Positions 126 to 64,000 of a stretch of DNA of 64,000 bases are shown piece by piece (the first letter of the stretch is position 1; each line of letters opens with the position of its first letter). The stretch is taken from assembly GCA_016186995.1 (NCBI GenBank), contig JACPKQ010000020.1, forward strand, positions 9,330 through 73,329. Direction: 5' to 3'. The notes below the pieces were generated by a model. That model had not been told where the DNA came from, searched no databases, and saw only the letters and a list, made by a program, of their open reading frames with translations. Source of the DNA: Deltaproteobacteria bacterium. Its GTDB lineage: Bacteria > Bdellovibrionota > JACOXK01. A program made the position numbers and the translations under genes.

Positions 126-3053
126 ATGAAAACAGAAAAAACATATTGGAAAAGTTTTGAAGAGATTGCCGCGTTGTCTTCGACTCCTCGCAATGACAAT
201 GGGGGCGACACATCGTTTGATATTTCAAGAAGAAAGTTTCTATCTCTTTTAGGGGCTTCAATGGCACTGGCCACTACAAGTTGTAGAAGGCCCATTCATA
301 AAATTATTCCTTTTGTCAAAGAATCTGAAGCTGCTAAGCCCGGAATTGCAGAATATTACGCTTCTTCTTACCCTATCAGTGATCACTCACTCGGCGTTCT
401 TGTAAAAACAAGAGAAGGTAGACCCATAAAAATAGAAGGAAACCCAGAGCACCCCTTAAGTTTAGGAGGAACAAACAGTTTTGTACAAGCTTCTGTCCTT
501 GAACTATATGATCCAGATCGTCTTCGAACACCTAAGATTAAAAATAAAAAAGTTTCCGTTGAGGAATGGGATTATTTAACCTCTTCCATCTTGCGACATG
601 CTCACAAAGAAAAAAAAGTAGTGAGAATCCTCACAGAATCAACGGGAAGCCCGACCTTAAGAAATACACTGAACAGTTTTGTTTCTCAATTTTCAAATGC
701 AAAGTGGTATGAATACGAGCCTTTCTCTCATGAAAACAGTCGGGCTGCTTACAAAGCTTCTTTTGGCAAGGCTCATAAACCAAAAATTCACCTTGAAAAA
801 GCAAACGTTATTTTAAGTTTAAATTCTGATTTTTTAGGGGCTGATCTTTCAGCACCCACCTACATTAAAAATTGGACTTCAAAAAGAAAAGTTCACGATG
901 TAAGCGCCACCATGAGCCGGCTTTATGCAGTTGAAAGCAGATTCTCTCTTACAGGTGCTAATGCTGATCATAGGCTTGCTTTAAAGCCCTCAGAACTTCT
1001 TATTTTTGCTCTCAATTTAGCTCAACTTTTGACTCATGATTTTGACGGAAAAAAAATACCTTCTTTCAAACACCGTTCTTCTTTTTCAGAAGAATTTATA
1101 AAAACAGTGGCAGAAGATCTTGCCTCTAACAAAAAGAAATCACTTGTTGTTGTAGGAGATCAAGAGAGCGAAGAACTGCACATAGTTGGAAACTTTTTAA
1201 ACTTTATCCTTGGAAATTATGGAGAAACAATCTCTCGTAAAATTCAATCACCTTCTTTTTTCAATGGAATAAAATCTATGACACCGCTTATTGAAGAACT
1301 TGAAAAAGAAAAAGTAGATGTTTTGATAACGCTAGGAGGTAATCCTGTTTATCATCTTGGTGAAAAATTTAGAGAAGCTCTTTCAAAAGTAAAAGAAAGC
1401 ATTCGTGTGAGCCTTTATGAAGATGAAACAGCACACTCTTCAACTTATATTGCGCCTCTTTCTCATTATTTAGAATCCTGGAGTGATCAAGAACCGGAAA
1501 CAGGGCTTTACAGCGTGGGACAACCTACCATTCAACCCCTCTACCCCTCAAAAAGCATGGGGGAAGTTTTAGTTCTTTGGGGTGCTGCGCTTGAAAAAAA
1601 AGAAATAGATGCACTTCAAGTGTGGAGAAACGCCATTAAATCTTACGCGCAAAAAAGTACAAATACGACATGGAAAAAACTTCTCCATGATGGTGTTGTT
1701 AAAACAGACAAAATCTCTCCACAAAATTATGAATTTAATATGGCTGCTTTAGAATCCACGCTCATGCTTGTGGCATCACGAGCAGAGCGTAATGACAGCG
1801 GTGATGATATTTTTGAACTTCAACTTGAACCTAGTTCTAAGGTATGGGACGGGCGTTTTGCTAACAGTGCTTGGCTCCAAGAACTGCCACACCCGGTTAC
1901 AAAAGTAACGTGGGATAACGTTGCCTCCATGAGCCCTGAGACAGCAAAAAACTTAAATGTCACACAAGAAAATAAAATTGAAATAACCGCCAATGGCGCA
2001 AGCCTCGTACTTCCTGTATTTATACAACCTGGACTTGCTCAAAACGTCATTACAACAGAAATAGGTTACGGAAGAACGCATGCAGGATCTGTAGGAAGTC
2101 ATGTTGGGGTTAATGTCTTTCCTCTTATTCAAGCAACTAACATTAAAGTTCAAAAAGTTTCTGGCAGTCACGAAGTAGCAACAACGCAAAAACACCATGA
2201 TCTGATGGGTCGACCTATTATTTTTGAATCGACCCTCGAAGAATACAAACAAGAACCCGATTTTCCAAAAAAACAACATCATGTACCTGAAATGCATTCT
2301 ATGTATAAAAATGACCATGAATACAAAGGGCATAAATGGGGTATGACCATTGATCTTAACAGTTGTGTTGGGTGTAACGGATGTGTCACAGCGTGCGATT
2401 CTGAAAATAATATTCCGGTTGTAGGCAAAGAACAAGTTCTTAAAGGTAGAGAAATGCAGTGGATGAGAATTGATCGCTATTACGATACAACAAATGAACA
2501 CTCACCTACCGTGCTTCACCAACCTATGCTGTGCCAGCATTGTGAAAATGCACCTTGTGAAAATGTATGCCCCGTTGTAGCAACCACACATTCTGACGAA
2601 GGTTTAAATCAAATGATTTATAACCGATGTGTAGGAACTCGTTATTGTGCTAATAACTGCCCTTATAAAGTAAGACGTTTTAACTTCTTCAATTTTAATT
2701 ATGATATGCAATCTCCAGAAGAACTTGGAAAAAATCCTGATGTCACAGTTCGCTTTCGAGGGGTTATGGAAAAATGTTCCTTCTGCGTTCAAAGAATTCA
2801 TGATGGAAAACATGCAGCAAAAATGGAAGGCGTTTCACTTCAAGACGGAAAAATTAAAACAGCGTGTCAACAAGCCTGTCCTGCAGAGGCCATTGTATTT
2901 GGAGACCTCAATGATCCGAACTCTTCAGTTTCAAAACTTTCAAACCTCTCACACGGCTATCATGTACTTGGGGATCTCAATGTAAAACCTTCTATTACCT
3001 ATTTAGCTAAAGTAAGAAATTACCATCCAAACCTTTTTAAATTTTATGAATAA
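126..3053 (+). CDS. actB: Alternative complex III subunit ActB (molybdopterin-oxidoreductase-like + Fe-S)
   Basis: YWKS start, SRRKFL Tat motif, [15 protein letters not shown]-terminal Fe-S motifs [29 protein letters not shown]. Confidence 0.95.
162..197 (-). repeat. GTCA-footed palindromic repeat, in frame in actB
   Basis: Minus strand GTCATTGCGAGGAGTCGAAGACAACGCGGCAATCTC; 2 mismatches to the copy at 37548-37581. Confidence 0.85.
1752..1796 (-). repeat. GTCA-footed hairpin, in frame in actB
   Basis: ACGCTC-A-TGCTTGTG-GCAT-CACGAGCA-GAGCGT stem followed by AATGAC. Confidence 0.65.
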
Positions 3054-5514: not shown

Positions 5515-5518
5515 AACG

Positions 5519-6697: not shown

Positions 6698-6745
6698 AAA
6701 ATAGTTTTTATTTCCAATAGCTTTCTTTGTTGTTATATTTATCTT

Positions 6746-8140: not shown

Positions 8141-8673
8141 ATTAATCCTAATTTTAGTTTAGCTTCTTCGCTCATTCGACTTTGATCCCAAGGAGGATCC
8201 AAAACAATGGCAACATCTACCATTTCAACATTATCAATATTTAAAAGCTTAGACTCAATATCTGATTTTAAAATATCCCCCATCCCGCATCCAGGTGCTG
8301 TTAAAGTAAATCGAACATCAATTTTATATTTTCCATTTTCCAAAGTAACCACATTACAAGCGTACACAAGCCCAAGATTCACAATATCAACAGGAATTTC
8401 TGGATCGTAACAAGTTTTAAGCTCTTCCCAAACTTTTTCTTCAATAGTTTTTGACCCCTGGATCCCCGCCTTCTCCACTACTTTTCCCAAAGCATCAGCA
8501 TCTTTACCATCAATACGAACCATGTAACCCTGATCCGTTGTAACTGTAAAAGCACCCCCTAAAGATTGCGTAATAGTTACCTCTGATCCTTTTTCAAGGT
8601 CCACCTTATAGCCATCAGGAATAACAATGGCCTCAACCTTTCTTGTAAGTTGTACATGTTCTCTTTCTTGCAT
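8137..8673 (-). CDS. sufT: Fe-S assembly protein SufT (DUF59)
   Basis: ITQSLGG, YDPEIPVDIVNLGLVY, TLTAPGCGMG. Confidence 0.9.
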   Translation of the reverse strand: MQEREHVQLTRKVEAIVIPDGYKVDLEKGSEVTITQSLGGAFTVTTDQGYMVRIDGKDADALGKVVEKAGIQGSKTIEEKVWEELKTCYDPEIPVDIVNLGLVYACNVVTLENGKYKIDVRFTLTAPGCGMGDILKSDIESKLLNIDNVEMVDVAIVLDPPWDQSRMSEEAKLKLGLI

Positions 8674-8676
8674 GAT

Positions 8677-10331: not shown

Positions 10332-11660
10332 TTATGAAGAAAAAACAATATGATCTATCTTCTTTCTGACTGCTTCCTGTGGAATGCTTTCTATAATTTC
10401 ACTTACAAAAGCATGAATGAGCATTTTTCGTGCTTCTTCCTCTGAAATACCTCGTGATTTTAAGTAAAAAAGCGCTTTTTGATCAAGCTGTCCTGTAGAA
10501 GATCCGTGAGTACACTCCACATCATCTGCATAAATTTCTAAATTAGGCTTTGCAAAAACTTGAGCGCCTTCTGATAAAAGTAAGTTTTTATTAATCTGAC
10601 GTGCTTGTGTCCCTTTTGTTCCTTTAGCAACTATAATTTTGCCATCAAAAACTCCTTGAGCTTTTTCTTCCACAACAGCTTTGAAAAACTGATCACTCAC
10701 ACAGTTGGAAACGTTATGTTCCACCAAAGTATGGAAATCAATCACCTGAGAACCTTTTGGTTTTAAAAGCCCCTTTAAAAAACACTGCGCATGTCCCTGC
10801 GTAAAAGGCACATTTACATCTTGTCTTGAAAATCTTCCACCAATGCCAAATAAAAAACTTCTCACTTCACTTTTTAACCCCTGCTCAAAATAAAGATCAG
10901 AAATATGAAAAGCATTTTTTCCCTCAAGCTGGAAACGATAATGTTCACATTGTGATTGTTCTTGTGTTACAATTTGAGAAACAACAGAATTAAAATAGTG
11001 GGCGTTCTCTTCCCCTCCAAAAGATTCTAAAATAGTCACTTTCGAAGCTTTTCCTATGATAAAAAGATTCCTTAAATAATGAGCACTGTTAGAATTTGTA
11101 GAAAAATAAATAAAATGCAATGGTTTCTTTATTTTTTGACCCTCTCTTACATAAAGACAAGCTCCATTTGAAAAAAGCGCTGTATTTAAAGATGTAAAAG
11201 CATTTTTCTTCGAATGAAGTTTTTTATTCACATAGTTTCGAGCTATGTGAGGGTGACATTTTATAAACTCTTGTAAATTACCTAAAAATACTTGAGAAGG
11301 AAGATCTTCTATTTTAGATAAATCTTTTGAGAAAAGACCATTTATAAAAACAACTCTATAGCAATCAAGCCCTTCAAATATAAAAGGCTCAATATTTTCT
11401 TTCCCATCACCAAAGATTGCGAGATCACCACGGATTCTTTCAGAATCCTCGTGATGACGAGGTTTAAAAGAACTCTCTAAAAAAGAAGAAATATCTGTAT
11501 ACTTCCATTCTTCTACTTTTTTGTTTGGAAATCCTTGTTTTTGAAATTGCTCTATGGCGCTGTCTTTAAGCTCTTTAAGCCAAGGAGACACACTTCCATT
11601 CAGAGATTGTTTTAAACTCTTGTATTGAGAAACATAATCTTGAACAGTGTGAAGTGTCAT
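10332..11660 (-). CDS. sufD: Fe-S assembly protein SufD
   Basis: EEWKYT, PNLEIYADDVECTHG, FYLKSRGI. Confidence 0.93.
   Translation of the reverse strand: MTLHTVQDYVSQYKSLKQSLNGSVSPWLKELKDSAIEQFQKQGFPNKKVEEWKYTDISSFLESSFKPRHHEDSERIRGDLAIFGDGKENIEPFIFEGLDCYRVVFINGLFSKDLSKIEDLPSQVFLGNLQEFIKCHPHIARNYVNKKLHSKKNAFTSLNTALFSNGACLYVREGQKIKKPLHFIYFSTNSNSAHYLRNLFIIGKASKVTILESFGGEENAHYFNSVVSQIVTQEQSQCEHYRFQLEGKNAFHISDLYFEQGLKSEVRSFLFGIGGRFSRQDVNVPFTQGHAQCFLKGLLKPKGSQVIDFHTLVEHNVSNCVSDQFFKAVVEEKAQGVFDGKIIVAKGTKGTQARQINKNLLLSEGAQVFAKPNLEIYADDVECTHGSSTGQLDQKALFYLKSRGISEEEARKMLIHAFVSEIIESIPQEAVRKKIDHIVFSS
11421..11458 (-). repeat. GTCA-footed palindromic repeat, in frame in sufD
   Basis: Minus strand GTCATCACGAGGATTCTGAAAGAATCCGTGGTGATCTC. 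Confidence 0.75.
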
Positions 11661-25080: not shown

Positions 25081-25608
25081 TCACACAAACTTTTTTAAGT
25101 AACGATACATAATATAAATTAAAGAAATAAAAACCAAAACCCACTTTATCAAGGCACAAAAGGTGGCTAAGAATACAAGGTAAGAAAAGAGATCCTTCGC
25201 TGCGCTCAGGATGACGGGAGAGTCGCTCAGAACAACATTATTTAGTAAAATAAGATGAAAAGAATTTTCCACCCAATCTAAAATGGCAGCAAGAAATGGT
25301 AGTAATAAAAAAGGTAGCTGTGCTTTCTGGATTCCGATAAGACTTGAAAGAAAAAAAGAATAAGCAATGGGAAAAAAATAATCAACATAAAGTATGTTTT
25401 TAAAAGCCTGTACGCCTTGATCTCCCCAAAGCATCAAGATGTTTTGAAAGGCTTCCAGAGAATAAACAAATTGTATCTCTAAAGGTGTTGGAGAGTGTGA
25501 AGGGCGTGCTTGATCAAAATATCCAAAAATAAAAATACAAAGAAGACCTGCAAAAAAAGAACCCCATAAAATGTAAGGAGATTTAAGTTTTTTATAAAAA
25601 GATTCCAT
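25081..25608 (-). CDS. Hypothetical membrane protein
   Basis: Four hydrophobic segments; DYFFPIAY and DWVEN motifs. Confidence 0.7.
   Translation of the reverse strand: MESFYKKLKSPYILWGSFFAGLLCIFIFGYFDQARPSHSPTPLEIQFVYSLEAFQNILMLWGDQGVQAFKNILYVDYFFPIAYSFFLSSLIGIQKAQLPFLLLPFLAAILDWVENSFHLILLNNVVLSDSPVILSAAKDLFSYLVFLATFCALIKWVLVFISLIYIMYRYLKKFV
25189..25215 (-). repeat. GTCA-footed palindromic repeat, in frame
   Basis: Minus strand GTCATCCTGAGCGCAGCGAAGGATCTC encodes VILSAAKDL; degenerate partial copy just upstream. Confidence 0.8.
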
Positions 25609-26094: not shown

Positions 26095-27201
26095 CTAAAA
26101 TAAATATTCTGGTGTTGGAAATTTATTAACTAATAAATGCTTTGCTTCAGTAAAAACTGTTTTATATCCCTCATCTTCATAAGTTACATCAAATTTCAAA
26201 AGCCCTTTAAGAACAACCTCGACTGAAGCTCTTTCAAATAAAATTTTATAAAGCCCTTCTGTAATAGGCATTGGAATTTGAAATTTTTGAGAAATTTCGT
26301 AAGCAATTTCCGTTGTATAAACCCCTTCTACAACCATTCCAATTTCCTTTAAAATAGCTTCTTTGCTTTTTCCTTGAGAGAGTAGCCTTCCAAAAGTATT
26401 GTTCCGACTTAAAGTTGAAAAACAGGTTGTTACTAAATCTCCCATTCCAGAAAGCCCCAAAAAAGTCTCCTTTTGTGCCCCTAAAAAAACTCCTAAACGA
26501 GTCATCTCTCCTAACCCCCGTGTTACTAAAAATGATTTTGAATTTGTTTGAAGTCCTAAGCCCGTTGCAATTCCAGATCCAATAGCAATAATGTTTTTGA
26601 GCGCACCCCCTAACTCAACACCTTTTAAATCATAACTACCATAAACTTTAAAAGGAAAATAGGAACTGGATCCCGGATCTTTGTGCGGGATGACAGAGGT
26701 AGAAAACAAATCGATAACATCATGAATGACTTCTTCATAATGAGAACCCACCACAGCCCCTGAGGGCTGACCTGATAAAATTTCATTTGCAATATTAGGC
26801 CCTGAAAGAGAGCCTACTTTTTTACAACAGGTTTCCTCCTTAAGAATATCTGACATTGTTTTGCATGTTCCTTTTTCAATTCCTTTCGTACCACTTACAA
26901 GAATCTGATCGCCCCTCACTGTATGACCTAATTCAAAGGAAACTTCACGAAAAACTTGTGAAGGTACAATCACAAATATAATAGAACAGTGATCTGTCAC
27001 TTCTTTTAAATTTTGAGTTGCTTTTATTTTTTTGGAAAGTGGAGAAGAACCTGTATATTTCTTATTGGTGTGATACTCATTCATCTCATGTAACACTTCT
27101 CTATTTCGAGTGCACAAAACAACATCGCGCCCATTTGTAGCTAACAGATGTGCAACCGTTGTTCCCCAATTACCCGAACCTATAACACCCACTTTATTCA
27201 T
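26095..27201 (-). CDS. gpsA: NAD(P)H-dependent glycerol-3-phosphate dehydrogenase
   Basis: GSGNWGT, LSGPNIA, GGALKNIIA, GDLVTTC..SRN. Confidence 0.95.
   Translation of the reverse strand: MNKVGVIGSGNWGTTVAHLLATNGRDVVLCTRNREVLHEMNEYHTNKKYTGSSPLSKKIKATQNLKEVTDHCSIIFVIVPSQVFREVSFELGHTVRGDQILVSGTKGIEKGTCKTMSDILKEETCCKKVGSLSGPNIANEILSGQPSGAVVGSHYEEVIHDVIDLFSTSVIPHKDPGSSSYFPFKVYGSYDLKGVELGGALKNIIAIGSGIATGLGLQTNSKSFLVTRGLGEMTRLGVFLGAQKETFLGLSGMGDLVTTCFSTLSRNNTFGRLLSQGKSKEAILKEIGMVVEGVYTTEIAYEISQKFQIPMPITEGLYKILFERASVEVVLKGLLKFDVTYEDEGYKTVFTEAKHLLVNKFPTPEYLF
26666..26694 (-). repeat. GTCA-footed palindromic repeat, in frame in gpsA
   Basis: Minus strand GTCATCCCGCACAAAGATCCGGGATCCAG encodes VIPHKDPGSS. 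Confidence 0.8.
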
Positions 27202-30715: not shown

Positions 30716-32776
30716 CTACGCTTTTATGCCAAAGACTTTGAAGATGAAAGTATATTCTAAGGCAAAATCTTTGAGATATTCATAACGTCCAGAGGCACCA
30801 AAGTGGCCAGATCCCATTTTAATATAAAGAAGCTGATAGTTTTTATCTTTTTTAAGATCTCTTATTTTAGCAATCCATTTAGCAGGCTCCCAATAACACA
30901 CACGAGGATCATTAAGTCCTCCGGTAGCTAAAATATGGGGATACTCACCCTCTTTTAAATTATCATAAGGTGAATAAGACTTAATATACTCAAAATATTC
31001 CTTGTCTTTTGGGTTGCCCCACTCATCATACTCTATTTGTGTAAGTGGTAAGGTATCATCAAGCATTGTATTTAAGGCATCCACAAAGGGGACGTGTGCT
31101 ACGACTGCTTTAAAAAGCTCTGGCTTCATATTAAGTACAGCTCCTACTAAAAGCCCACCAGCACTTCCTCCTACAATGACAATTTTCCCCTTGGATGTAT
31201 AATTGTGAGAGATGAGCTCTTCTGCTGAAGAAACTAAATCTTTAAAAGTATTTTTCTTTTTCAAAAACTTTGCATCTTCGTACCAATACCGCCCCTTTTC
31301 AGTACCACCTCGAATATGGGCTAAAGCAAAAATAAAACCCCTTTCTAAAATAGAAATCCGATTGCTCGAAAACTGAGGATCAATACTAATACCATAAGCA
31401 CCATATCCATAAAGATAAACAGGGTTATTTCCATTTTTTTTAAGCCCTTTTTTATAAACAAGATCCATAGGTATCTTTTCCCCATCCCATGAAGTTGTAT
31501 AAATACGTTCTGTTTCATACAAAGAAGTGTCTACATTGGGTACAACTTTATCTTTCTTAAGTTCTTGTGTTTTTGTTTTCATATTATAATCAAAAACTTT
31601 AAGTGGTATGGTAGGAGACGTAAGCGTGTATCTTAAAATTGTTGTATCAAATTCAGGATTGGTAGAAAGAGAAAGCTTATAAACAGGTTCATCAACATGG
31701 ATGTAATGTTCTTTGGCTTCAACTAAATTGATTACTTTTATAAAAGTAAGGGCGTCTTTTCTTTCAAAAACTATCAGGTGTTCTTTAAAAGCCTCAATAT
31801 CAGCGATAAAAACGTCCTTTTGCGGTGCAATAATTTCTTTCCAGTTTTCTTGTTCTGGGTGGTCCACATGCACCTTACAAACACGAAAATTGGGGTGAAG
31901 ATCGTTTGTGAGAATAAAAAAATCTTCTCCATGATGCGCTAAATAATATTCATGTCCGCGTTTTCTTTTTTGAATGAGTCTTAGTTTTGAGTTAGAGTCG
32001 TCAGCATCTAAAATATGATTCTCTTGTGTCATAGCACCATGGATAGAGAGCACAAGATACTTTTCACTTCGTGTCTTATGACACCCTACAAACATTTCTG
32101 CTGTTTTTTCTTCATACACTTTTATATCTTTTTTAGGGTCTTCCCCTAGGCAATGTTTATAAACAGCATAAGGCCTGTGGTTTTTATCTAAAATACTATA
32201 CAAAAAGGTTTTATGGTCATTAAACCAAGCAATGCTTCCAGCGGTGTTTTCAATTTTTTCTGGAGCAAGCGTTCTACCCTCTAAATCTTTAATAAAAAGA
32301 GTGTATTTTTCACTTCCATCGAAATCACAACTATAAGCTAAAAGTTTGTGGTTAGAAGAAAGCGCAAAACCACCTAAAGAAAAAAATTTCTGCCCACAGG
32401 CCAACTCATTTAAATCTAAAATGATTTCTTCTTGTGGATTCCCGCTCTTGCCGGAATGACGTGGCGTACGGCAATAAATTTCATATTCTTTTCCCGCTTC
32501 GTAACGATAATAATAGTAATATTCACCATCTTTTTGAGGAACTGAAGATTCATTTTCAAGAATTCTTGACTTAAGCTCTGTAAATAAATTTTCACGAAGT
32601 TCTTTTTCTGGTTCTAAAATAGATTCTGTATATTTATTTTCGGCTTCTAAATAGTGAGTCACCTGAGGGTTTTCTTTTTCTCGAAGCCAAAAGTAAGGAT
32701 CTTCGAGTATTTCTCCATGTATTTTTGTAGTATGATTTTTTTTCTCTGGTTGGGGTGCTTTTAACGCTTCTTTCAT
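30716..32776 (-). CDS. ptrB: Oligopeptidase B (S9A)
   Basis: DPYFWLRE, GGSAGG nucleophile, DPRV, GH. Confidence 0.93.
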   Translation of the reverse strand: MKEALKAPQPEKKNHTTKIHGEILEDPYFWLREKENPQVTHYLEAENKYTESILEPEKELRENLFTELKSRILENESSVPQKDGEYYYYYRYEAGKEYEIYCRTPRHSGKSGNPQEEIILDLNELACGQKFFSLGGFALSSNHKLLAYSCDFDGSEKYTLFIKDLEGRTLAPEKIENTAGSIAWFNDHKTFLYSILDKNHRPYAVYKHCLGEDPKKDIKVYEEKTAEMFVGCHKTRSEKYLVLSIHGAMTQENHILDADDSNSKLRLIQKRKRGHEYYLAHHGEDFFILTNDLHPNFRVCKVHVDHPEQENWKEIIAPQKDVFIADIEAFKEHLIVFERKDALTFIKVINLVEAKEHYIHVDEPVYKLSLSTNPEFDTTILRYTLTSPTIPLKVFDYNMKTKTQELKKDKVVPNVDTSLYETERIYTTSWDGEKIPMDLVYKKGLKKNGNNPVYLYGYGAYGISIDPQFSSNRISILERGFIFALAHIRGGTEKGRYWYEDAKFLKKKNTFKDLVSSAEELISHNYTSKGKIVIVGGSAGGLLVGAVLNMKPELFKAVVAHVPFVDALNTMLDDTLPLTQIEYDEWGNPKDKEYFEYIKSYSPYDNLKEGEYPHILATGGLNDPRVCYWEPAKWIAKIRDLKKDKNYQLLYIKMGSGHFGASGRYEYLKDFALEYTFIFKVFGIKA
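32435..32460 (-). repeat. GTCA-footed palindromic repeat, in frame in ptrB
   Basis: Minus strand GTCATTCCGGCAAGAGCGGGAATCCA encodes RHSGKSGNP. Confidence 0.75.
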
Positions 32777-37545: not shown

Positions 37546-38639
37546 AAGATTGCCACGTCGTCTTCGACTCCTCGCAATGACAGAGGGGCTTTGATTGCCA
37601 CGTTGCTGCACTCCTCGCAATGACGAAGTGTGTCATAGCCCTGATCCAAAATAAAAACATTTTTAAAACCATTTTCTTCTAAAACTCCTTTTGCAAAGGG
37701 GGTTTTAAGATGTTTTTCACAATAAAGCACATAGGTTTTATCCTTATCATAATTCTTGAGCGCGTCAGGCGATTGCAATAACGACCGATATGAAAGATGC
37801 TCGGCCCCTTCTAGGGCATCTTTTTCATATTGTTCACGTTCACGAATATCTAAAAGAATAATATTTTTGTCCTTTTTTTTCCAATTTAAATAGGTGTTAT
37901 AAGATATTTCGGGAAGAGAAGTACGACCATTCAAGCAATTTTTATTTTTCTTGATTTTTATTTTACTCACTTCAAAGTTTTTTGTATCAATCAAATAAAG
38001 AAAAGACTGGTTCCCCTCCGGAAAAAGGATTTCTTGCAAAACAAGCTGGGCTTGGAACATCGCAACCATACCCACACTTGGCCCCAAAACGCCACTTTCA
38101 TTGCAATTTTGAAAAAGTCCTTCTTCAATGTTAGGGAAAATACAATTCAAACAAGGGCCTCGACTTCGAAACACAGCACATTCTCCGTGCCACTGATCAA
38201 TACTCCCATACACCCATGTTTTGTTATTCTGTTTACAAAAATTATTAATCAAAAAGCGCGTTTTGAAATTATCTGTTCCATCTACTACAATATCAACATT
38301 AGATAAAATTTTATCAATATTATTTTTCTGGAGATGAATCGGAAAAGATTCAACACTTATTGTTGAGTTGAGTTCTTTTATTTTTTTATGCATCGCATGA
38401 GCTTTGTTTTCTTTAATATCTTTTTCAGAAAATAAAATTTGGCGATGAAGATTGGACAACTCAACACTATCACCATCAATAAGTTTTATTCGCCCAACTC
38501 CAGCGGGAGCAAGATAAGAGGCTATTACGTTTCCAAGCCCTCCTACACCTACAACAGCAACACTTGCAGCGTTCAGTTTTTTTTGACCTGCTTCGCCTAT
38601 TTCCGAAAGCTTGATTTGCTTTTCGTATCTATTTTGCAT
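37542..38639 (-). CDS. moeB: MoeB/ThiF adenylyltransferase fused to rhodanese domain
   Basis: GVGGLG, SNLHRQ, DGTDNF, CLNC, C-terminal LDIRE...YC. Confidence 0.9.
   Translation of the reverse strand: MQNRYEKQIKLSEIGEAGQKKLNAASVAVVGVGGLGNVIASYLAPAGVGRIKLIDGDSVELSNLHRQILFSEKDIKENKAHAMHKKIKELNSTISVESFPIHLQKNNIDKILSNVDIVVDGTDNFKTRFLINNFCKQNNKTWVYGSIDQWHGECAVFRSRGPCLNCIFPNIEEGLFQNCNESGVLGPSVGMVAMFQAQLVLQEILFPEGNQSFLYLIDTKNFEVSKIKIKKNKNCLNGRTSLPEISYNTYLNWKKKDKNIILLDIREREQYEKDALEGAEHLSYRSLLQSPDALKNYDKDKTYVLYCEKHLKTPFAKGVLEENGFKNVFILDQGYDTLRHCEECSNVAIKAPLSLRGVEDDVAIL
37547..37624 (-). repeat. Tandem pair of GTCATTGCGAG repeats encoding the MoeB C-terminus
   Basis: Copies at 37547-37581 and 37593-37624. 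Confidence 0.85.
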
Positions 38640-38640: not shown

Positions 38641-39162
38641 TTAATTAGATTTAGATCCCCGCCTCCGCGGGGATGACGGGGACGGATGCTCTGCTGTTCC
38701 TCTTAAAATTCCCAAACCATGTTCCAAAACTGGCATCAGAATTTCTAAAGATTCTTCTACCCCACGAGAAGAGCCTGGAAGATTAATAATAAGTGAGTTT
38801 TTACGAAGCCCCGCTATGGCGCGTGATAAAAGAGCCAAGGGTGTTTTTTTAAAACCCTCGAGTCGCATCACCTCTCCAAAACCAGGAACCTCCCGTTCAA
38901 TCACTTTCTTTGTGGCCTCAGGAGTAATATCTCTTTTTGAAAAACCTGTTCCTCCTGTAGTTAAGATAAGCCCCACACTCATTTCATCTACAAGTTTCTT
39001 TAAGTGGTTTTCAATAATATCCATTTCATCTGGAATGACTTCATAAGAAACAAGCTTGCAACTTGTATTCTTAAACATTTCTTGAATAATCTTGCCACTT
39101 TTATCAATACGCTTTCCTTCAGAACAACGATCACTGACTGTAACAATAGCTAAAGTCATCAT
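38641..39162 (-). CDS. mog: MogA/MoaB molybdopterin adenylyltransferase
   Basis: VSDR, DKSG, TTGGTG..RDITPEAT, NLPGS. Confidence 0.9.
   Translation of the reverse strand: MMTLAIVTVSDRCSEGKRIDKSGKIIQEMFKNTSCKLVSYEVIPDEMDIIENHLKKLVDEMSVGLILTTGGTGFSKRDITPEATKKVIEREVPGFGEVMRLEGFKKTPLALLSRAIAGLRKNSLIINLPGSSRGVEESLEILMPVLEHGLGILRGTAEHPSPSSPRRRGSKSN
38653..38677 (-). repeat. GTCA-footed repeat encoding the MogA C-terminus
   Basis: Minus strand GTCATCCCCGCGGAGGCGGGGATCT encodes SSPRRRGS. Confidence 0.82.
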
Positions 39163-39674
39163 AAAATATCCTGGATCCCAGCCTTCGCTGGGATGACACT
39201 CCTTGTCATTCCCGCGGAGACGGGAATCTTATTTGATTTAGTTTTTTCTAAAAGGCGAATGTTTTCAAAAAACATGTTTTTATCTACCGCCTTACACATG
39301 TCATAAATCGTTAACAAAGCCACGTTCACTGCCGTTAAGGCTTCCATTTCAACCCCTGTTTTGGCACTTGTTATGACTTGAGCTTGCACTTCAATCCCCC
39401 CTTCTTGAAATTCAAAATCTATACTCACATGATCTAAGTTAAGAGAATGACAAAGAGGAATAAGATCTGCTGTTTTTTTAGCCGCTTGAATACCTGCAAT
39501 GCGAGCACAAGCAAATACACTTCCTTTAGGTATTTTTTCATTTCGAATTTTTTCTAAAACAGATGGCGACATTTTAATAAAACCTCGAGCCCGAGCATAT
39601 CTCTCAACAATAGGTTTAGCCTGCACCGGAACCTGTCTGATTTCTCCTTTTTTATCTAAATGTGTCAATTTCAT
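39159..39674 (-). CDS. moaC: cPMP synthase MoaC
   Basis: LTHLD, LIPLCH, TGVEMEAL, YDMCKAVD. Confidence 0.95.
   Translation of the reverse strand: MKLTHLDKKGEIRQVPVQAKPIVERYARARGFIKMSPSVLEKIRNEKIPKGSVFACARIAGIQAAKKTADLIPLCHSLNLDHVSIDFEFQEGGIEVQAQVITSAKTGVEMEALTAVNVALLTIYDMCKAVDKNMFFENIRLLEKTKSNKIPVSAGMTRSVIPAKAGIQDIL
39171..39229. repeat. Inverted pair of GTCA-footed repeats encoding the MoaC C-terminus
   Basis: CTGGATCCCAGCCTTCGCTGGGATGAC-ACTCCTT-GTCATTCCCGCGGAGACGGGAATCT. Confidence 0.88.
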
Positions 39675-41892: not shown

Positions 41893-43095
41893 AAATACCT
41901 TTTCTTAAATATTGAACTCCATAATAAACACCACTACCCACTAAAAGAGCTCCTCCTGCATGCCAAAATACAAAAGCACAACTTGTAGCCACTAAAGACA
42001 CAACTTCTTTAAAACCACGAATTAAAAAAGCGCGCTTACAAAGATCAAAAGCTGGAAATATAAATAAAATCCCCAAAAGAGGTTTTGGGAAGTGTGTTGC
42101 AAGGGTCAAGAAAAAAGAACCTAATAAAAGTGCAACGGTTATTTTTAAAAAGCCCAAAAATACAATACTAAAACCAGTACGCGCTCCAAATATCATTTGT
42201 GCTGCTAAGCCCCCTGCACCATGACACGAAGGCATACCTCCAAAGGGGCACGTCAGTAAGTTGACCAAACCTACAGATTTTGAGATCTCTGAAACACCCA
42301 CATGAGATTGTGGAAACTCATCTTGAATGAGAAGTGCTGGAGAAAAAATAGAGTTAGCCATTGTGAGGGGAAGCTGAATAAGGATCAGCAACAATATTGT
42401 TTGAGTACTGGATGACATGAAAGAATCGGGGGATGACAATAATGGTAGTTGGAGAAACTCTAATGAAAACCCTATATGAGGAAAAGCAAGCACCCCACTG
42501 TCAGATAAAACAAAAATACCAAAACCAAAAATTAAAAAAGTGAGAAGAAATTGTAATTTATGAAAGAAAAAGAACAAAAAGAAAATGACAAAAAAGAATA
42601 AGATCCCTATTAAGACACCCTCGCCCCACTCCTCTCCCATCAAGGGAGAGGGCGTTGAGAAGATTAATTCGAAGGCTTTTTTTAAAAAAACAATTCCCAA
42701 GCCCAGTTGGATCCCTCGAATGACAGCTTGTGGAAAAAAACGATAGAGTTTTTCGAAAAGATGGAGGTCATTCAAAATAAGGATCACAACTCCCAAACAA
42801 AAACCTGCCAAGAGTAACTCTCCTTGAGAAACTCCGTAAGTAATAGCGTAAAGCCCCATTGCCTTCATAGGCTGCAAAGGAAGTGGAATTTTAAAGATAA
42901 ACCCAATCACAATGTGACAAAGACCACTCCAAAAAAGAATACTTAAAGGGTTAAAACCTGCATGTTGTGACAAACCCACTATGAGTATAAAAAAAAGTGG
43001 AAGATCTCCAAGTGCACCTGAAATTTCATGAATATAAAAAGAAAGCTTGTTCAAAAAATCTCCTTTCCAAACTTGGGGAGGAAGAAGCGTTTCCA
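41876..43095 (-). CDS. MOT1-family molybdate transporter
   Basis: GALGD, PLQPMK, FGGMPSCHGAGGLAAQ..FG; heads the Moco operon; likely start 43095. Confidence 0.82.
42617..42654 (+). repeat. CCCTC-family palindrome, in frame in the MOT1 gene
   Basis: ACCCTCGCCCCACTCCTCTCCC-ATCAA-GGGAGAGGG encodes PSPLMGEEWGEG; same loop as the 26050 copy. Confidence 0.8.
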
Positions 43096-43129: not shown

Positions 43130-43155
43130 TGGATCCCCGTTTTCACGGGGATGAC
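43130..43155 (-). repeat. GTCA-footed repeat in the likely leader of the Moco operon
   Basis: Minus strand GTCATCCCCGTGAAAACGGGGATCCA. Confidence 0.8.
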
Positions 43156-43280: not shown

Positions 43281-43329
43281 ACCCTTCACTCTCGTTCAGG
43301 GTGACAGGGGGTTTCCAGGGATGACAAAG
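43281..43329 (-). repeat. Composite GTCA-footed repeat upstream of porin-like gene
   Basis: Minus strand GTCACCCTGAACGAGAGTGAAGGGT plus partial GTCATCCCTGG; segments shared with 56851 and 61623. Confidence 0.7.
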
Positions 43330-54931: not shown

Positions 54932-54951
54932 TCTAACCTCCACAAAGATCG

Positions 54952-55761
54952 TTACTCAGATTTTATCTGACGATCATATATTTCTTGATTCACTGAAACT
55001 TTCTTTCTTCGATACCCATAAAGAGCAATGAAGATAAAAAATAATGTTGCTCCAAAAACACCACTTAAAAGCAAACCCAAACCGTAATCTTTTGGCTTTT
55101 GATACATGTGCTGTTGATCCGCTGATTGCAAAAAGGCCACAAGTGTTCGAACCTCATCATCTTCTAAAGGTTTATCTTTATAAGCTTGTTGCATGACAGG
55201 GAAAGGAGGCCCTCCTAAAATAATCCGAACACCCTCTCCGCCTAATCTTGAAAAAACAGTTGTCAGATCTTTGGCTAAAATCCCCCCACCGATAATGGCA
55301 TCATTTTTGACATGGTGACAGGCAATGCAAGATGGCCCTCCATGAGCAAACCTTATTTTTCCTTGGAAAAAATCCGCACCTGTCTGTATGTCTTCATCAC
55401 TAAGATTCCCGCCTTCACGGGGATCTATTTCTTCACCCTCTGATGCAGCTCGCAAACTTAAAATTCCCTCAATTATTTTTTTTACCTCTGTTTCAGAAAG
55501 TGTTGGGTGTGGGGGCATCGGCATATCTCCCCACTTACCGCTTGAACCTTCTCTTACAGATTGAATGAGAGATTTTATATTATTGGAATTCAATTCATAT
55601 TTATCCGCCATTTCCTTAAAAGACGGACCTATTAATTTTTGATTTTCCTTGTGACAGGCTAAACAATCTGACTTTTGCATAAGCACTTCGGCTTGATCAA
55701 AACCGCCTGCATTAAGAACACTCAAAAAGAAAAAAAACAAACTAAAATAAAGAGGCTTCAT
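54952..55761 (-). CDS. Dihaem cytochrome c with C-terminal anchor (NarC-like)
   Basis: Signal peptide, CLACH/PMPP domain, CIACH domain, C-terminal TM; first gene of nar operon. Confidence 0.8.
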
Positions 55762-55803
55762 ATACTTTTCTCCTGCTTTCTCTCATTAAATGCAACGCGT
55801 CTC

Positions 55804-55846
55804 AGAATATATAGAAATCTAAAGCGAAAAAAATGACCTAAATCAT
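55804..55846 (-). promoter_or_regulatory. Class II Crp/Fnr-dependent promoter for the nar operon
   Basis: ATGACCTAAATCAT (55833-55846), 23 nt from -10 TATTCT. Confidence 0.7.
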
Positions 55847-55874
55847 ATTTTCTCATTTTGATATATTTGAGTGA

Positions 55875-56813
55875 ATGTGTTTGAATGGGAAAGCCGTGTT
55901 TCAAAAAAAAATCTTTCTTGTTTTTGCCACACTTTTCTGGGGAGGCACTTTTATTGCGGGAAAATTTGCTGTTCAAGACATGCATGCATTTCAAATTGCT
56001 TTTTATAGATTTGCTCTTGCAAGCCTTTGCTTTTTACCTTTTCTCATACGAGAAATACGAAAAACTCCTTTTAATTTAAAATTACACTTAGGTTATTTCG
56101 TTTTGGGCTTTCTAGCTATTTTTAGTTATCATTATCTTTTTTTCTATTCTCTTACCCTCACCTCCGCTATCTCTGCTGCCTTTATCGTAGCTTTAAATCC
56201 TATTATAACAACTCTACTTTCCTCTCTTTTTTTTCGAGATGAAAGTTTGAATTATTTTAAGCTGAGTGGTGCCACTATCGCTTTTTTAGGAGTTCTTTTT
56301 GTCATCACATCTGGGAACCTAAATCTTATGACTCATCACTCCCTAAATTATGGAGATATTCTCATGTTTCTTGCAGTTTTTTGTTGGTCGGCCTCCATTC
56401 TTTTAAGCAGGCGTCTCATGAGAAATTCAAAGGCACTTCCTCTTACCTGTTTTTCAACTTTCTATGGCGCCCTCATTCACCTTCCATTTCTTTATTGGAA
56501 GGGTTTTTTAGGTACTTTTCCGCAAGCCTCCCTTCTTACCTGGGGCTCTGTCATCTACATGGCCATTTTTTCAACGGCTATTGCTTACATTTTTTATTAC
56601 GAAAGCATCCAAAAATTAGGGGCTTCTTTCACAGCTCTCATGCTTAACCTTATTCCTATATGGGCTCTTTTTTTCGCTGTACTTATTTTAGGAGAATCTC
56701 TTACAGTGGAAAAAGTTGTAGGAGTCGTTTTGGTATTGAGTGGTATTAGTTTTATTAATTTGAAATCAAGGTCATCACTGAGGAATGACATTCCTTGTCA
56801 TTCTGAGGAGTGA
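55875..56813 (+). CDS. DMT/EamA family transporter
   Basis: FWGGTF..GK, two EamA repeats; start probably GTG near 55896; C-terminal residues repeat-derived. Confidence 0.9.
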   Translation: MCLNGKAVFQKKIFLVFATLFWGGTFIAGKFAVQDMHAFQIAFYRFALASLCFLPFLIREIRKTPFNLKLHLGYFVLGFLAIFSYHYLFFYSLTLTSAISAAFIVALNPIITTLLSSLFFRDESLNYFKLSGATIAFLGVLFVITSGNLNLMTHHSLNYGDILMFLAVFCWSASILLSRRLMRNSKALPLTCFSTFYGALIHLPFLYWKGFLGTFPQASLLTWGSVIYMAIFSTAIAYIFYYESIQKLGASFTALMLNLIPIWALFFAVLILGESLTVEKVVGVVLVLSGISFINLKSRSSLRNDIPCHSEE

Positions 56814-56906
56814 CAAAATCACGACGAAGAATATACTTCTGATAGGAGTGCGTTCAGGGTGACAGAATTCGAATCCATGAGCGAGTTTAAATTCGTGTTC
56901 ATGTGA
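56771..56906. repeat. Composite repeat block over the eamA stop
   Basis: GGAATGAC-ATTCCTT-GTCATTCTGAGGAG...GACGAAGAAT, CGTTCAGGGTGAC, GACAGAATTCGAATCCATGAG and a degenerate second copy. Confidence 0.75.
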
Positions 56907-56947
56907 AGATGGGCTGGAGGTTTTGAAGGGGAGCCAAGGTTGTTTTT

Positions 56948-60147: not shown

Positions 60148-61214
60148 CTCTCAATGAACACTCAAATGTTTTAATCACAGGGTTTCCAGGATTTATTGGG
60201 AAGTTCTTAACAAGAGAGCTTGTTAAAACTCACCCCCATTTAAAACTGTGGCTTCTCACTCATCCTACAATGCACGAACAAGCACAAAAAACATTTCAAG
60301 AATTAAAACTGAACCCTCAAACACACCACATCGTTTTCGGAGACATTACAAAACCTCAGCTTGGTTTAGAAGGAGACACGTTAGAAAATATTCAAAAAAA
60401 CACCCATATCGTTTTTCATCTTGCTGCCATCTATGACCTCACTGTTCCAGAAAAAAAAGCTCACCATGTTAATGTGTTTGGCACACAAAACATGCTTGAT
60501 TTTTTTTCACACTCTCCTTCACTCATAAGATTTAATTATATTTCTACGTGCTACGTATCGGGCTCGGTGAAAGGCATCATAACACCCGATAAACTTCAGC
60601 AAAATCAATCATTTCATAATTTTTATGAATCCACAAAACACGCTGCCGAAGTCTTGGTAAAAAATAAAATAAATGATTTACCGATCACTATTTTCAGGCC
60701 TGCCATTGTTGTAGGGCACTCTCAAACAGGCGAAACCGAAAAGTTTGATGGCCCTTATGTAGTCATGAAGTTTCTCCACAGAATAAAATTCCTCTTAAGA
60801 TTAGTTCCTAATTTGGGCTATGATTATTGCGAAGTGAATACCGTGCCCGTTGATTATTTAGTGAAGGTTCTTGTTTATTTAGGTTTTAATGAAAAAGCTA
60901 AAGCGAAAACTTATCAAATCTGTGATGAAACGCCCCCTACAACGGAAGAATTCTTTGAAGAAATTGTCACAATAATAGGGCATGTTAAACCTTATCATTG
61001 CAGATTTCTCAAATACATTATTCTTAAACTTCTTCGCCTCTCGCTTGTTTCAAAAATAACAGGTATAACTCGGGAACATCTAGATTATTTTTTACATGAA
61101 GGAAGGTATCGTTCTCCAAACTTAAAAAAAGATCTTGAGGGTTCACATATGGAACTCGGCTCTTATAAAAAATTCTATCCAACCCTTTATCAATATATGA
61201 AGGATCACATATGA
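60144..61214 (+). CDS. Extended SDR (thioester/fatty-acyl reductase-like)
   Basis: TGFPGFIG, GDIT...LG, HLAAIYD, YESTK, RPAIVVG. Confidence 0.8.
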   Translation: MTLNEHSNVLITGFPGFIGKFLTRELVKTHPHLKLWLLTHPTMHEQAQKTFQELKLNPQTHHIVFGDITKPQLGLEGDTLENIQKNTHIVFHLAAIYDLTVPEKKAHHVNVFGTQNMLDFFSHSPSLIRFNYISTCYVSGSVKGIITPDKLQQNQSFHNFYESTKHAAEVLVKNKINDLPITIFRPAIVVGHSQTGETEKFDGPYVVMKFLHRIKFLLRLVPNLGYDYCEVNTVPVDYLVKVLVYLGFNEKAKAKTYQICDETPPTTEEFFEEIVTIIGHVKPYHCRFLKYIILKLLRLSLVSKITGITREHLDYFLHEGRYRSPNLKKDLEGSHMELGSYKKFYPTLYQYMKDHI

Positions 61215-61624
61215 ACCTCAATCTCTTTAGAAAAATGATGCTCTTGTGGAGTGTTTGTTTTTTAATAGCAGGTCTCTTCTTTATCATAACCCCACACACA
61301 GTCATTGCCCTTCTCAACCACAGTGCCCAACTCTTTCATTTTTCAAAGAGTATTCCTTTTCACGAGGATTACTTATGGCTTTCACTGGCTGGATCGATGA
61401 TGATCACTATTTCTTATTTAAGCTATGAGGCTTATAAAAATCCAAAAAACCATCCTGTTATACAGGGGCTTTTAATTTGCAAATTAGCAAGCTCTTTGCT
61501 TTTTATTATTTCTGCATGGAGAACCCAGAATAACACTTATTTGTTGGGAACAGCCGTCGATTTTCCTATTTTTTTAATTATTTTTATTTTTTATCTTCAA
61601 ACCAGGAGGTTGTCCCGGGAATGA
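61211..61624 (+). CDS. Hypothetical membrane protein
   Basis: Four TMs; translationally coupled to upstream SDR. Confidence 0.7.
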   Translation: MNLNLFRKMMLLWSVCFLIAGLFFIITPHTVIALLNHSAQLFHFSKSIPFHEDYLWLSLAGSMMITISYLSYEAYKNPKNHPVIQGLLICKLASSLLFIISAWRTQNNTYLLGTAVDFPIFLIIFIFYLQTRRLSRE

Positions 61625-61651
61625 CAGAGGGGGTTACAGGGATGACAAAGG
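61611..61651 (-). repeat. Partial GTCA-footed repeats supplying the stop codon of 61211-61624
   Basis: CCCGGGAATGACAGAGGGGGTTACAGGGATGACAAAG; similar to 43302-43329. Confidence 0.65.
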
Positions 61652-61654
61652 CTA

Positions 61655-62584: not shown

Positions 62585-64000
62585 AAAGACCTCTTTTTTC
62601 TTGGACTCATGCCGTTTTAAAAAGTTATGCTGAGCTTCATGCTGAGCCTCATGACTTAAAAGAAACTCTCCACAAAGCACAAGAACACATTCAAAACTTA
62701 CCTTTTAAATACTATTTCTTATCTCAATTTTTCTTTTTTTTTATAGAATTTTTGATTCCTCTTTTTTATGGCGAGTTCGGGCGTTTTTCAAAATTACCTC
62801 GAGGAAAAACGCTTAAAATCATTCAAGCACTGCAACGAACAAAATTTCTTTTTTTGAGACTTTTTTTCTTCCTGTGTAAATCTCCTGTTTTGTTATCTCT
62901 TAAAACACTTAATTCTGAATACCCCTCTGTCATTCCAGCCCCCGATCGCAGTCGAGGGCAGGCTCCGGCTGGAATCCAGAAAAATAAAAATTCTGGATCC
63001 CAGACAATGCTTCGCATTTCTGGGATGACAAAAAAAGACGAAAGAAAAATATATGATTTTTGCGTTATAGGGTCAGGCGCCGGTGGCGCTGTCGCTGCTA
63101 GAGCTCTTCAAGAAAATGGCTTTCACGTTGCTCTTTTAGAAAAGGGTGGTTTTGCAAAAAAAGGGCACGATGAACTTTCCTCTTTTACAAAGTATTACCG
63201 AGATCAGGGGCTGATGGGTGCGCTCGGAAATACTTTCATTGGTGTTCCTACAGGAGAAGTGGTCGGGGGCACAACCAAAATTAACTCAGGCACTTGCTTT
63301 GAAACTCCACAATCTGTTGTAGAAGAGTGGCGCCATAGACTTCATTTAAATATTTCCTATGAAGAACTATTACCCCATTTTGAAAAGTTGAGAGATATTT
63401 TATCTATTCAAGAAGTTCCTTATGATAAGGTTTCCAACGCAAATAAACTTTTTGCTCACGGTTTGGAAGCTTTAGGTTTTAACAATCATTTTCCTCTCAA
63501 TCGTAATGCAAAAAATTGCGAAGGCTCTGGACGATGTTGCTTCATTTGCCCACAAGATGCCAAACAATCGACAGATATCGCCATGATACCTAAGTTTTTA
63601 AAACAAGGAGGCTCTCTTTTTACTCAAACAGAGGTGATAAGCATAAAAGAAAAAAAAGACCATGTTCTTTTAGTTTGCAAAAATCATTTGGGGGAAAAAA
63701 TTCTTTTCTCCTGTCAAAAACTTATTATTTCTGGGGGTGCACTCTCCTCACCTACCCTTATAAGAAAAAATAAATTAGGTTCTGAATGGAAAAAGGCAGG
63801 AAACAAATTAACCGTTCATCCCGCTGCAAAAGTTTTGGCAAAGTTTTCCTCAAATGTTCAAGGATGGCATGGGGTTCCTCAAGCTCTTGGATTTAAACAC
63901 CCTCATTTCCCGAGTCTTTCTTTTGAAGGTGTCTTCACCCCCCCTCAATTAGCAGCTATGGTTCTACCCCTTGAAGGAGAAGAGCTTAATGAATGGCTTA
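62581..64000 (+). CDS. GMC-family oxidoreductase (partial, runs off window; not in ORF track)
   Basis: Open from ATG 62581; YDFCVIGSGAGG, VVGGTTKINSG, CEGSGRCCFICP..AKQS, GGALSSP. Confidence 0.85.
   Translation, partial: MKRPLFSWTHAVLKSYAELHAEPHDLKETLHKAQEHIQNLPFKYYFLSQFFFFFIEFLIPLFYGEFGRFSKLPRGKTLKIIQALQRTKFLFLRLFFFLCKSPVLLSLKTLNSEYPSVIPAPDRSRGQAPAGIQKNKNSGSQTMLRISGMTKKDERKIYDFCVIGSGAGGAVAARALQENGFHVALLEKGGFAKKGHDELSSFTKYYRDQGLMGALGNTFIGVPTGEVVGGTTKINSGTCFETPQSVVEEWRHRLHLNISYEELLPHFEKLRDILSIQEVPYDKVSNANKLFAHGLEALGFNNHFPLNRNAKNCEGSGRCCFICPQDAKQSTDIAMIPKFLKQGGSLFTQTEVISIKEKKDHVLLVCKNHLGEKILFSCQKLIISGGALSSPTLIRKNKLGSEWKKAGNKLTVHPAAKVLAKFSSNVQGWHGVPQALGFKHPHFPSLSFEGVFTPPQLAAMVLPLEGEELNEWL
62929..63029. 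repeat. Inverted pair of GTCA-footed repeats in frame in the GMC gene
   Basis: GTCATTCCAGCC...GGCTGGAATCCAG and CTGGATCCCAGA...TCTGGGATGAC. Confidence 0.88.

Follow-up and report, generated by a model that had tools for sequence, protein, structure and literature searches.

The 64,000-nucleotide stretch analyzed here (the window; C14:9330–73329 of G000, the genome under study, a 1.68 Mb, 30-contig, 93% complete assembly of a Deltaproteobacteria bacterium of the phylum Bdellovibrionota) is AT-rich (33–41% G+C) and carries short GC-rich hairpin repeats that begin with GTCAT or GTCAC. We consider it likely that these repeats are Ssn-related motifs (SRM), the partners of a small putative single-stranded DNA (ssDNA) nuclease, Ssn, whose gene lies elsewhere in the same genome, and we propose that they spread by nicking and repair. 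The identification is based on the motif itself, on the flanking bases that are critical in the published system, on a GIY-YIG gene bracketed by inverted copies of the repeat, and on the co-occurrence of gene and repeat among related genomes. Furthermore, this lineage is notable for the many repeats that lie in frame in its core genes, a feature that goes beyond the Ssn paper (Chenal et al., Nat Commun 2025; PMC11893778) as far as the parts of it available to us extend.

The repeat family is real and lies far above chance. Under a strict rule (GTCAY whose A opens a 5-bp foot stem, with the reverse complement of that stem 4–60 nucleotides (nt) away and then a C), and with at least two G/C in the foot stem, the window holds 13 copies, whereas 200 dinucleotide shuffles gave 0.62 on average and never more than 3; GTCAY by itself shows hardly any enrichment (181 vs. 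159.6 ± 13). All 20 sites named in a first-pass annotation of this DNA carry the sequence described there. Thirteen of the 16 that it called complete pass the strict rule (164, 11423, 25191, 26669, 32437, 37548, 37593, 38654, 39174, 39205, 43132, 62929 and 62996), and the other three are degenerate (1752, ending in GGATTC; 43281, with a GTCAC foot and ending in GGGTA; and 56797, ending in GAATA). The four sites that it called fragments (8457, 42410, 55403 and 61611) are half copies or foot-less copies.

The genome-wide scan for GTCAY plus hairpin proposed in that annotation gave the same picture. The genome has 6138 perfect hairpins with a stem of 7 or more and a loop of 3–30. As their 5′ context, GTC|AT ranks second (170, after TTTTT with 178) and the mirror context TGGAT fifth (122); a C directly follows 165 of the 186 GTCA-footed perfect hairpins. 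When up to one mismatch was allowed in an 8-bp stem, the scan found 206 copies vs. 13–20 in five shuffled genomes, and a looser rule that takes in the second family described below found 407 vs. 47–72 in five shuffles. When only the seven GC-rich foot classes are counted and nested calls are removed, at least 328 non-redundant repeats remain. These results indicate a single repeat system with a conserved structure and variable stems, as had been supposed from the window. The strand bias relative to the GC skew is modest (103 vs. 65 for the first family, 81 vs. 66 for the second) and is confounded with gene direction.

The repeats fall into two families. Family F1 (n = 176) has the form (T)GTC-ATYCCNGN-loop-NCNGGRAT-C(C/T)AG, with an 8-bp stem that shows compensatory variants and a loop of four bases, cttga, cgaaga, or a nested inner hairpin of 14–20 nt. 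Folded as ssDNA, F1 copies reach −5.3 to −12.7 kcal/mol (z −2.1 to −4.8). Family F2 (n = 152) has the form GTCATYRCGAG...CG(A/T)RGYRATC(T/C)C, and its stem consists of the 5-bp foot only, plus mismatches; GTCATTGCG is the commonest nine-letter word starting with GTCA in the genome (105 occurrences). A T precedes the GTC in 84% of F1 and 69% of F2 copies.

What known system do these hairpins resemble? The NTS of Neisseria, CGTCATTCCCGCGMAVGCGGGAATCYRG, belongs to the wider class of SRM, inverted repeats of 20–50 nt that likely form hairpins, are oriented as TGTC-AT...AT-C and fit the degenerate motif HGTCWYN(0-2)YYVSBRHN(0-5)WNVSBRGN(0-2)RNCYNB (PMC11893778). Their partner in the Ssn/NTS-SRM pair, SsnA, is a 94-residue GIY-YIG protein (cd10448) that binds the hairpin solely as ssDNA and cuts a few bases upstream of it (PMC11893778). 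Hairpin binding and cutting 5′ of GTC were demonstrated for four homologues; cutting depends most on the three bases before the palindrome and binding most on the C after it, and mutation of Y6, Y17 or E64 of the N. meningitidis SsnA abolishes cutting (PMC11893778). The G000 repeats share with that system the oriented motif, with GTC before and C after the palindrome, as well as a 94-residue single-domain GIY-YIG gene bracketed by inverted copies and a load of hundreds of copies in a small genome. The published SRM motif matches the G000 genome at 76 places (3 in the window) vs. 0–4 in 10 dinucleotide shuffles; it misses the long-loop copies and most of F2. The NTS core minus its first C occurs exactly 10 times. 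With these matches and the flanked GIY-YIG gene, the repeats correspond to the published Ssn/SRM pair, as far as the available parts of the paper describe it, and do not represent a new kind of system.

The gene in question, ssn, lies outside the window at G000:C3:97329–97610, in agreement with the statement of the first-pass annotation that the window itself holds no mobilizer gene. It encodes a 94-residue single-domain GIY-YIG protein (PF01541, 57.5 bits) within a 98-residue open frame, and is flanked upstream by an F2 copy on the (+) strand at C3:97251 plus a half copy and downstream by an F2 copy on the (−) strand at C3:97683. A GIY-YIG partner flanked by the repeats had been suggested as one of two candidates, and ssn with its inverted flanks is such a gene. 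The genome has four GIY-YIG matches, namely UvrC, two weak ones in longer open reading frames (ORFs), and ssn. In NCBIfam, the ssn product has only below-cut-off matches, and in the PDB it has one distant chain, the UPF0213 protein 1zg2 (E 2e-4).

The bracketed arrangement is widely conserved. We compared 80 homologous ssn loci from many phyla, the best 80 of at least 549 relatives (at least 599 pattern-matching stretches in public genomes), with products 54–66% identical to that of G000. A (+) element ends within 150 nt upstream of the gene in 59 of the 80 loci, and a (−) element starts within 150 nt downstream in 62. Both flanks are present in 48 of the 80, whereas neither flank is found at any of 63 gpsA control loci. 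The flank stems vary between genomes and agree around one gene: their first 11 bases match at 11/11 positions in 22 of the 48 loci and at 10/11 in a further 14. Across 79 aligned sequences, residues Y7, Y18, R28, H32, E65 and N84 do not vary, and, assuming a one-residue offset, Y7, Y18 and E65 would correspond to the catalytic Y6, Y17 and E64 of N. meningitidis SsnA. The range of 54–66% identity extends over Patescibacteria, Cyanobacteria, Planctomycetota, Gammaproteobacteria, Chloroflexota and Bacteroidota (L097–L176). Such identity between very distant phyla suggests that the gene unit has spread horizontally.

Gene and repeats also tend to occur together within the phylum. We surveyed 31 genomes of the phylum, counting G000 itself. 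Of the 12 that carry 15 or more F1 copies, 10 have an ssn match, compared with 1 of the 19 that carry at most 9; as the genomes are related and not independent, this contrast is descriptive and not a statistical test. F1 copies occur in all 11 class-level relatives; the copy number ranges from 6 to 176 within the class and reaches 536 (F1-pattern copies) within the phylum, in the 1.7 Mb genome G016, which has 4 ssn matches.

How many of the repeats lie inside genes? The 179 F1 calls comprise 91 that are intergenic, 58 deep in ORFs (at least 30 codons from both ends of an ORF of at least 90 residues), 24 near ORF ends and 6 straddling an end. The 58 deep calls reduce to 55 non-nested copies in 44 ORFs; 40 of these ORFs plus GpsA and PtrB were scanned against Pfam (one C28 ORF and a two-copy GMC ORF were excluded), covering 52 copies. 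Of these copies, 23 lie within a domain match, 9 between two matches of one protein, 9 N-terminal of all matches, 5 C-terminal of all matches and 6 in family-less ORFs. Consequently, at least 32 of the 52 have same-frame Pfam homology on both sides and are in real coding sequence, a number that is a minimum, being based on best-scoring stretches alone. This tally covers the F1 copies. The host proteins include UvrC (4 copies), MutS (2), MutL, CarB (2), ValRS (2), MetH, GpsA, dihydrolipoamide dehydrogenase, Asd, PurN, PurF, ComEC, CcsA, CtaA, an M16 peptidase and others. In N. meningitidis 8013, only 2% of NTS lie inside genes (PMC11893778), compared with at least 18% of the F1 calls that are certainly coding (32/179) and up to 32% inside ORFs (58/179) in G000. 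The parts of the Ssn paper available to us make no mention of in-frame insertions or of the Rickettsia palindromic elements (RPEs).

Codon shuffling does not regenerate the genic copies. The 44 host ORFs contain 71 elements, whereas permutation of the codon order gives a mean of 0.11 (maximum 2) and synonymous shuffling, which keeps the protein, a mean of 1.6 (maximum 6). Copies occur in all six frames, with 17, 8 and 10 in the sense and 16, 4 and 3 in the antisense frames, which agrees with the earlier description of elements read in different frames and strands. Two frames dominate, giving VIP...GIQ (17 copies) and D(S/P)R(L/F)RG(N/D)D (about 14 of 16 copies). The 3′ variant CTAG, which contains a stop codon when read in one of the frames, shows no depletion within genes (20/58 vs. 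24/91 intergenic). Judging from the open frames, the in-frame copies would be translated as extra residues.

The window copies, 16 complete sites followed by four partial ones, are as follows.

164–197 (−): antisense F2 copy in the N-terminal part of actB, ahead of the twin-arginine motif; the flanks of the copy are conserved in G003.
1752–1796 (−): degenerate element in a variable loop of actB.
11423–11458 (−): F2-type copy with an ATCAC foot, sense, in a variable region of sufD.
25191–25215 (−): F2 copy with an ATCCT foot in a 175-residue membrane ORF of no known family; the frame is open and the ORF unverified.
26669–26694 (−): F1 copy, sense and in frame, in gpsA between the N- and C-terminal domains, part of a 13-residue insert.
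32437–32460 (−): F1 copy with one stem mismatch, sense and in frame, in the beta-propeller of ptrB (oligopeptidase B).
37548–37624 (−): two tandem F2 copies (37548–37581 and 37593–37624) in the C-terminal tail of moeB, whose rhodanese domain ends at residue 336 of 365.
38654–38677 (−): F1 copy in the C-terminal tail of mog, whose Pfam domain ends at residue 148 of 173.
39174–39197 (−): F1 copy, sense, in the C-terminal tail of moaC, whose MoaC domain ends at residue 146 of 171.
39205–39228 (+): F1 copy, antisense, head to head with 39174–39197; these two elements make up the moaC tail.
43132–43155 (−): F1 copy at the very beginning of the MOT1 transporter ORF in its longest form.
43281–43305 (−): variant with a GTCAC foot; its host ORF is of no family and is overlapped by a longer ORF on the opposite strand.
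56797–56834 (+): degenerate F2 copy forming the last codons and the stop of eamA.
62929–62976 (+) and 62996–63029 (−): inverted F1 doublet upstream of a GMC oxidoreductase.
8457–8476 (−): 3′ half copy, in frame, N-terminal of an FeS_assembly_P domain.
42410–42437 (−): a pair of GTCATCC half sites at a distance of 21 nt, in the linker that connects the two MOT1 halves.
55403–55428 (−): F1 hairpin without the GTC foot, in frame, after a cytochrome c domain.
61611–61646 (−): two half copies, with the TGA of one ATGAC foot as the stop of ORF 61211–61624.

The first-pass annotation had placed most of the elements within open frames, a description that needs partial revision. Five of the 16 complete sites are internal to conserved proteins (actB at 162 and 1752, sufD, gpsA and ptrB), six form C-terminal tails past the last Pfam position (moeB twice, mog, moaC twice and eamA) and one lies in the unverified ORF (25189). 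The remaining four (43130, 43281 and the GMC pair at 62929 and 62993) are probably outside coding sequence. The MOT1 ORF matches Pfam from about residue 55 onward and has an ATG codon at residue 32, and the element at 43132–43155 is probably upstream of the true start; site 43281 is most likely intergenic. The FAD-binding fold of the GMC ORF begins at residue 191, and its nearest in-frame ATG lies within an ATGAC foot of the doublet.

We compared the host proteins with those of relatives to see how the peptides are placed. GpsA has 13 residues more in G000, and these are absent from 10 of 10 relatives, both same-family genomes included; the best named relatives of this GpsA share just 41–42% identity with it. 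In its AlphaFold model (mean predicted local distance difference test score, pLDDT, 86.8), pLDDT falls below 50 at only one internal segment, the insert (residues 169–181), which lacks secondary structure and sits between a confident helix and a confident strand. MutS carries 48 extra residues made up of three elements, absent from all four aligned relatives. UvrC has four sites, with +6, +24–26 (an F2 and an F1 copy) and +17–19 residues and a fourth at which G002 holds a different element; CarB has two, one of +7 residues and a loop where G001, G002 and G004 hold their own inserts.

The earlier interpretation of the peptides as insertions thus stands for GpsA (+13), MutS (+48) and UvrC (+17–19 and +24–26), whereas at the two ActB sites, PtrB and SufD the edges are blurred. 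PtrB is longer by a net 4 residues only relative to G001 and G002, and SufD by 6 relative to G002 in a variable region. At ActB site 1 (164), the G000 protein is 7 residues shorter than that of G003, so the element there is a replacement and not a clean insert; at ActB site 2 (1752), it is 3–6 residues longer, and the corresponding loop of G001 carries a larger insert of its own. Homologues with loops of equal length and no hairpin, named in advance as an outcome that would speak against insertion, were therefore found in part, since at these four window sites the homologue loops are of similar length. Residues 560–572 and 619–628 of UvrC, the ActB loop and the CarB loop hold different elements in G000, G001 and G002. 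The shared loops are either insertion hot spots or places where old inserts have turned over. The element-like inserts that the sister genera carry in the same loops are at L243 (UvrC of G001), L242 (UvrC of G002), L180 (ActB of G001) and L255/L256 (CarB).

The repeats are strongly clustered. A neighbor within 100 nt was found for 147 of the 328 copies (45%) vs. 3.8% expected, and 60 of the 77 close pairs are tail to tail, that is, inverted doublets with their GTCAT ends outward. The spacer within a doublet is mostly 10–20 nt and is frequently a small palindrome itself; the arms are usually unlike in type. Singlets measure 24–48 nt and doublets 51–109 nt. Larger mosaic repeats of 190–230 bp (84–96% identity; G000:C1:57440–57650 and about 8 other places) join an ~80-nt AT-rich module to a 107-bp F2 doublet, and the AT-rich module also stands alone at many places. 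We also observed 5′ half copies, which consist of GTCAT and the left arm, repeatedly at a distance of 21 nt upstream from full copies, as at C16:40053–40097, C17:15919–15963 and C10:113729–113772 and, in the window, at 42410–42437 and 61611–61646.

This organization recalls several known repeat systems. REP/REPIN elements consist of a tag beside a hairpin, form inverted doublets and have a single-copy partner gene between inverted repeats that acts on ssDNA. The G000 repeats share the tag and hairpin, the inverted doublets and the flanked single-copy partner; they differ in that the partner is a GIY-YIG protein and not of the HUH/Y1 type, the tag is GTCAT, and the genome has no Y1_Tnp match. 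RPEs are palindromic repeats that occur in frame in conserved genes, are tolerated in surface loops and are read in several frames. The G000 repeats are also found in frame in conserved proteins, in tolerant loops; the RPEs (Ogata et al. 2000/2002) are reportedly ~100–150 bp long, and the G000 singlets and doublets are shorter, a comparison that concerns length and placement. RPEs and SRM may overlap because Rickettsia is listed among the genomes with more than 300 SRM (PMC11893778). Relative to what the available parts of the Ssn paper describe, G000 differs in having two co-resident families with one gene and in its 60 inverted doublets with mostly unlike arms. The dRS3 pattern ATTCCC-N8-GGGAAT has 35 copies in the genome, and the mosaics of modules between copies are a further likeness to dRS3; the difference is that dRS3 is without orientation, whereas the G000 family is set by oriented flanks, as the paper argues for NTS (PMC11893778). 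The Discussion of that paper cites REP/REPIN with RAYT. Literature searches that linked GIY-YIG with REP, REPIN, RAYT or YhbQ gave nothing relevant, and neither did miniature inverted repeats with bacteria; no follow-up paper on SsnA with GIY-YIG was found, and text matches to the word GTCATTGCGAG were primers only.

How might the repeats multiply? The genome has one ssn gene between inverted GTCAT elements, resembling a miniature insertion sequence (IS), alongside at least 328 gene-less copies in the form of singlets, 60 inverted doublets and mosaic arrays. By analogy with its homologues, Ssn would bind the hairpin in ssDNA and cut the strand a few bases 5′ of GTC. Such nicking close to existing copies, with subsequent repair or template switching that draws on other copies, could then account for both spread and clustering, and it is in this sense that we infer mobility via the nuclease. 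Copies in coding sequence would persist only if the frame were kept, in tolerant loops or at gene ends, and would be read through as 8–48 extra residues. The NTS-ssnA-NTS layout has been called IS-like, and movement is not demonstrated in the parts of that paper available to us (PMC11893778).

Several observations weigh against this interpretation. Four of the five F2 copies of the window fold no better than shuffles (z +0.45 to −0.98), so that most F2 copies are only weakly hairpins; the fifth, in sufD (11423–11458), has z −2.43. The only ssn gene found is bracketed by F2 copies, although F1 is the more numerous family (176 vs. 152), and F1-flanked ssn genes occur only in the relatives G006 and G008. 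Because the sole ssn is F2-flanked and the genome is 93% complete, F1 may be served by a gene that has been lost or is unassembled. Two relatives rich in F1, G005 (98% complete, 94 copies) and G014 (38), have no ssn match to this query. At several host sites, relatives have loops of similar length or elements of their own, and an ancient, diverged insert and repeated insertion are therefore indistinguishable there. Finally, we know of no GIY-YIG nuclease that joins DNA, which leaves the insertion step without known chemistry.

Could the hairpins instead be immobile sites selected by the host, controlling incoming ssDNA in the way proposed for Neisseria or marking transcript ends, with the genic copies old and inherited? 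We regard this as improbable. Such a role would fit the sole demonstrated function of the Ssn system, the modulation of natural transformation in Neisseria (PMC11893778), together with the ComEC gene of this genome, the intergenic position of 91 of the 179 F1 calls and the presence of F1 in all 11 class-level relatives. It fits poorly with copy numbers that vary from 6 to 176 in the class and up to 536 in the phylum, with GpsA, MutS and UvrC inserts that are absent even from same-family genomes, and with the different element types in the same loops of sister genera. Moreover, the F1 stems are equally perfect in genes (45/58) and between them (67/91), and the doublets resemble the ssn unit minus its gene. 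The two dominant peptide frames might, in turn, suggest that the DNA similarity is a by-product of selection for a recurring peptide motif, or mere chance in GC-poor DNA. We give this practically no credence and reject it, given that all six frames are used, half of the copies are intergenic, synonymous shuffles yield 1.6 elements vs. 71 and genome shuffles yield 0–4 motif matches vs. 76.

Two further explanations assign the repeats to other enzymes. A Y1 transposase of the RAYT or IS200/IS605 type, which moves REP/REPIN-type repeats with a short tag beside a hairpin, was the second candidate of the first-pass annotation, and the layout of tag, hairpin and inverted doublets agrees with it. Nevertheless, a search for Y1_Tnp (PF01797; RAYT) gave 0 matches in this 93% complete genome, while the same search was positive in 6 of 14 control genomes. 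The repeats have GTCAT as their tag, and what lies between inverted copies across phyla is a GIY-YIG gene. A RAYT/Y1-HUH partner is hence very unlikely. The other possibility is that the repeats are dRS3-like targets of an IS110-family recombinase or of a filamentous phage that integrates, and do not spread by themselves. dRS3 is the integration site of filamentous phage in Neisseria. The 35 dRS3-pattern copies point in this direction, and among the works that the Ssn paper cites is Kawai et al. 2005, whose title proposes transposase-driven integration of filamentous phage in Neisseria (PMC11893778). We find this, too, highly improbable, as the IS110 transposase domain Transposase_20 (PF02371) has 0 matches in the genome and target sites of this kind would leave the 328 copies and their in-frame placement in genes unexplained.

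The SRM identity with spread through the Ssn nuclease therefore remains the interpretation we prefer. It may be asked whether more can be said, namely, that ssn and the GTCAT hairpins form an active IS-like system driven by the GIY-YIG nuclease, a second invention of the RAYT/REPIN arrangement. Its gene-less copies would home to positions beside existing copies and to permissive loops of proteins. Such a system would generally give rise to protein-coding palindromes, perhaps those of Rickettsia among them, and would repeatedly remodel the same loops of core enzymes in sister lineages. We put this forward tentatively, as a possibility that we think is rather doubtful; it is compatible with the data because the same UvrC, ActB and CarB loops hold different elements across G000–G002.

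The question matters because the spread of Ssn and SRM has so far gone unexplained, with transformation in Neisseria as their sole demonstrated role in the parts of the paper available to us (PMC11893778). G000 is a compact natural case, with repeats in dozens of core genes for DNA repair, tRNA charging and nucleotide or cofactor synthesis. If the repeats are mobile, it offers many insertion sites with empty orthologous sites in kin, loops colonized more than once and gene-less doublets. Such sites could reveal how a nuclease without known joining activity multiplies its sites, and could test whether protein-inserted palindromes in other small genomes have a common origin. If they are not mobile, G000 is one more genome rich in a known repeat.

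Two minor observations concern the edges of contigs and genes. The same SRM-bearing repeat ends three contigs (C2:105–126, C7:16–37 and C10:142430–142451) and resembles the sequence just upstream of ssn on C3; as the assembly breaks at SRM repeats, it may lack additional copies or another ssn gene. Furthermore, the ATGAC foot at 63021–63029 may provide the start codon of the GMC oxidoreductase, and another ATGAC foot provides the TGA stop (61622–61624) of ORF 61211–61624, so that the repeats would remodel gene ends in addition to loops.

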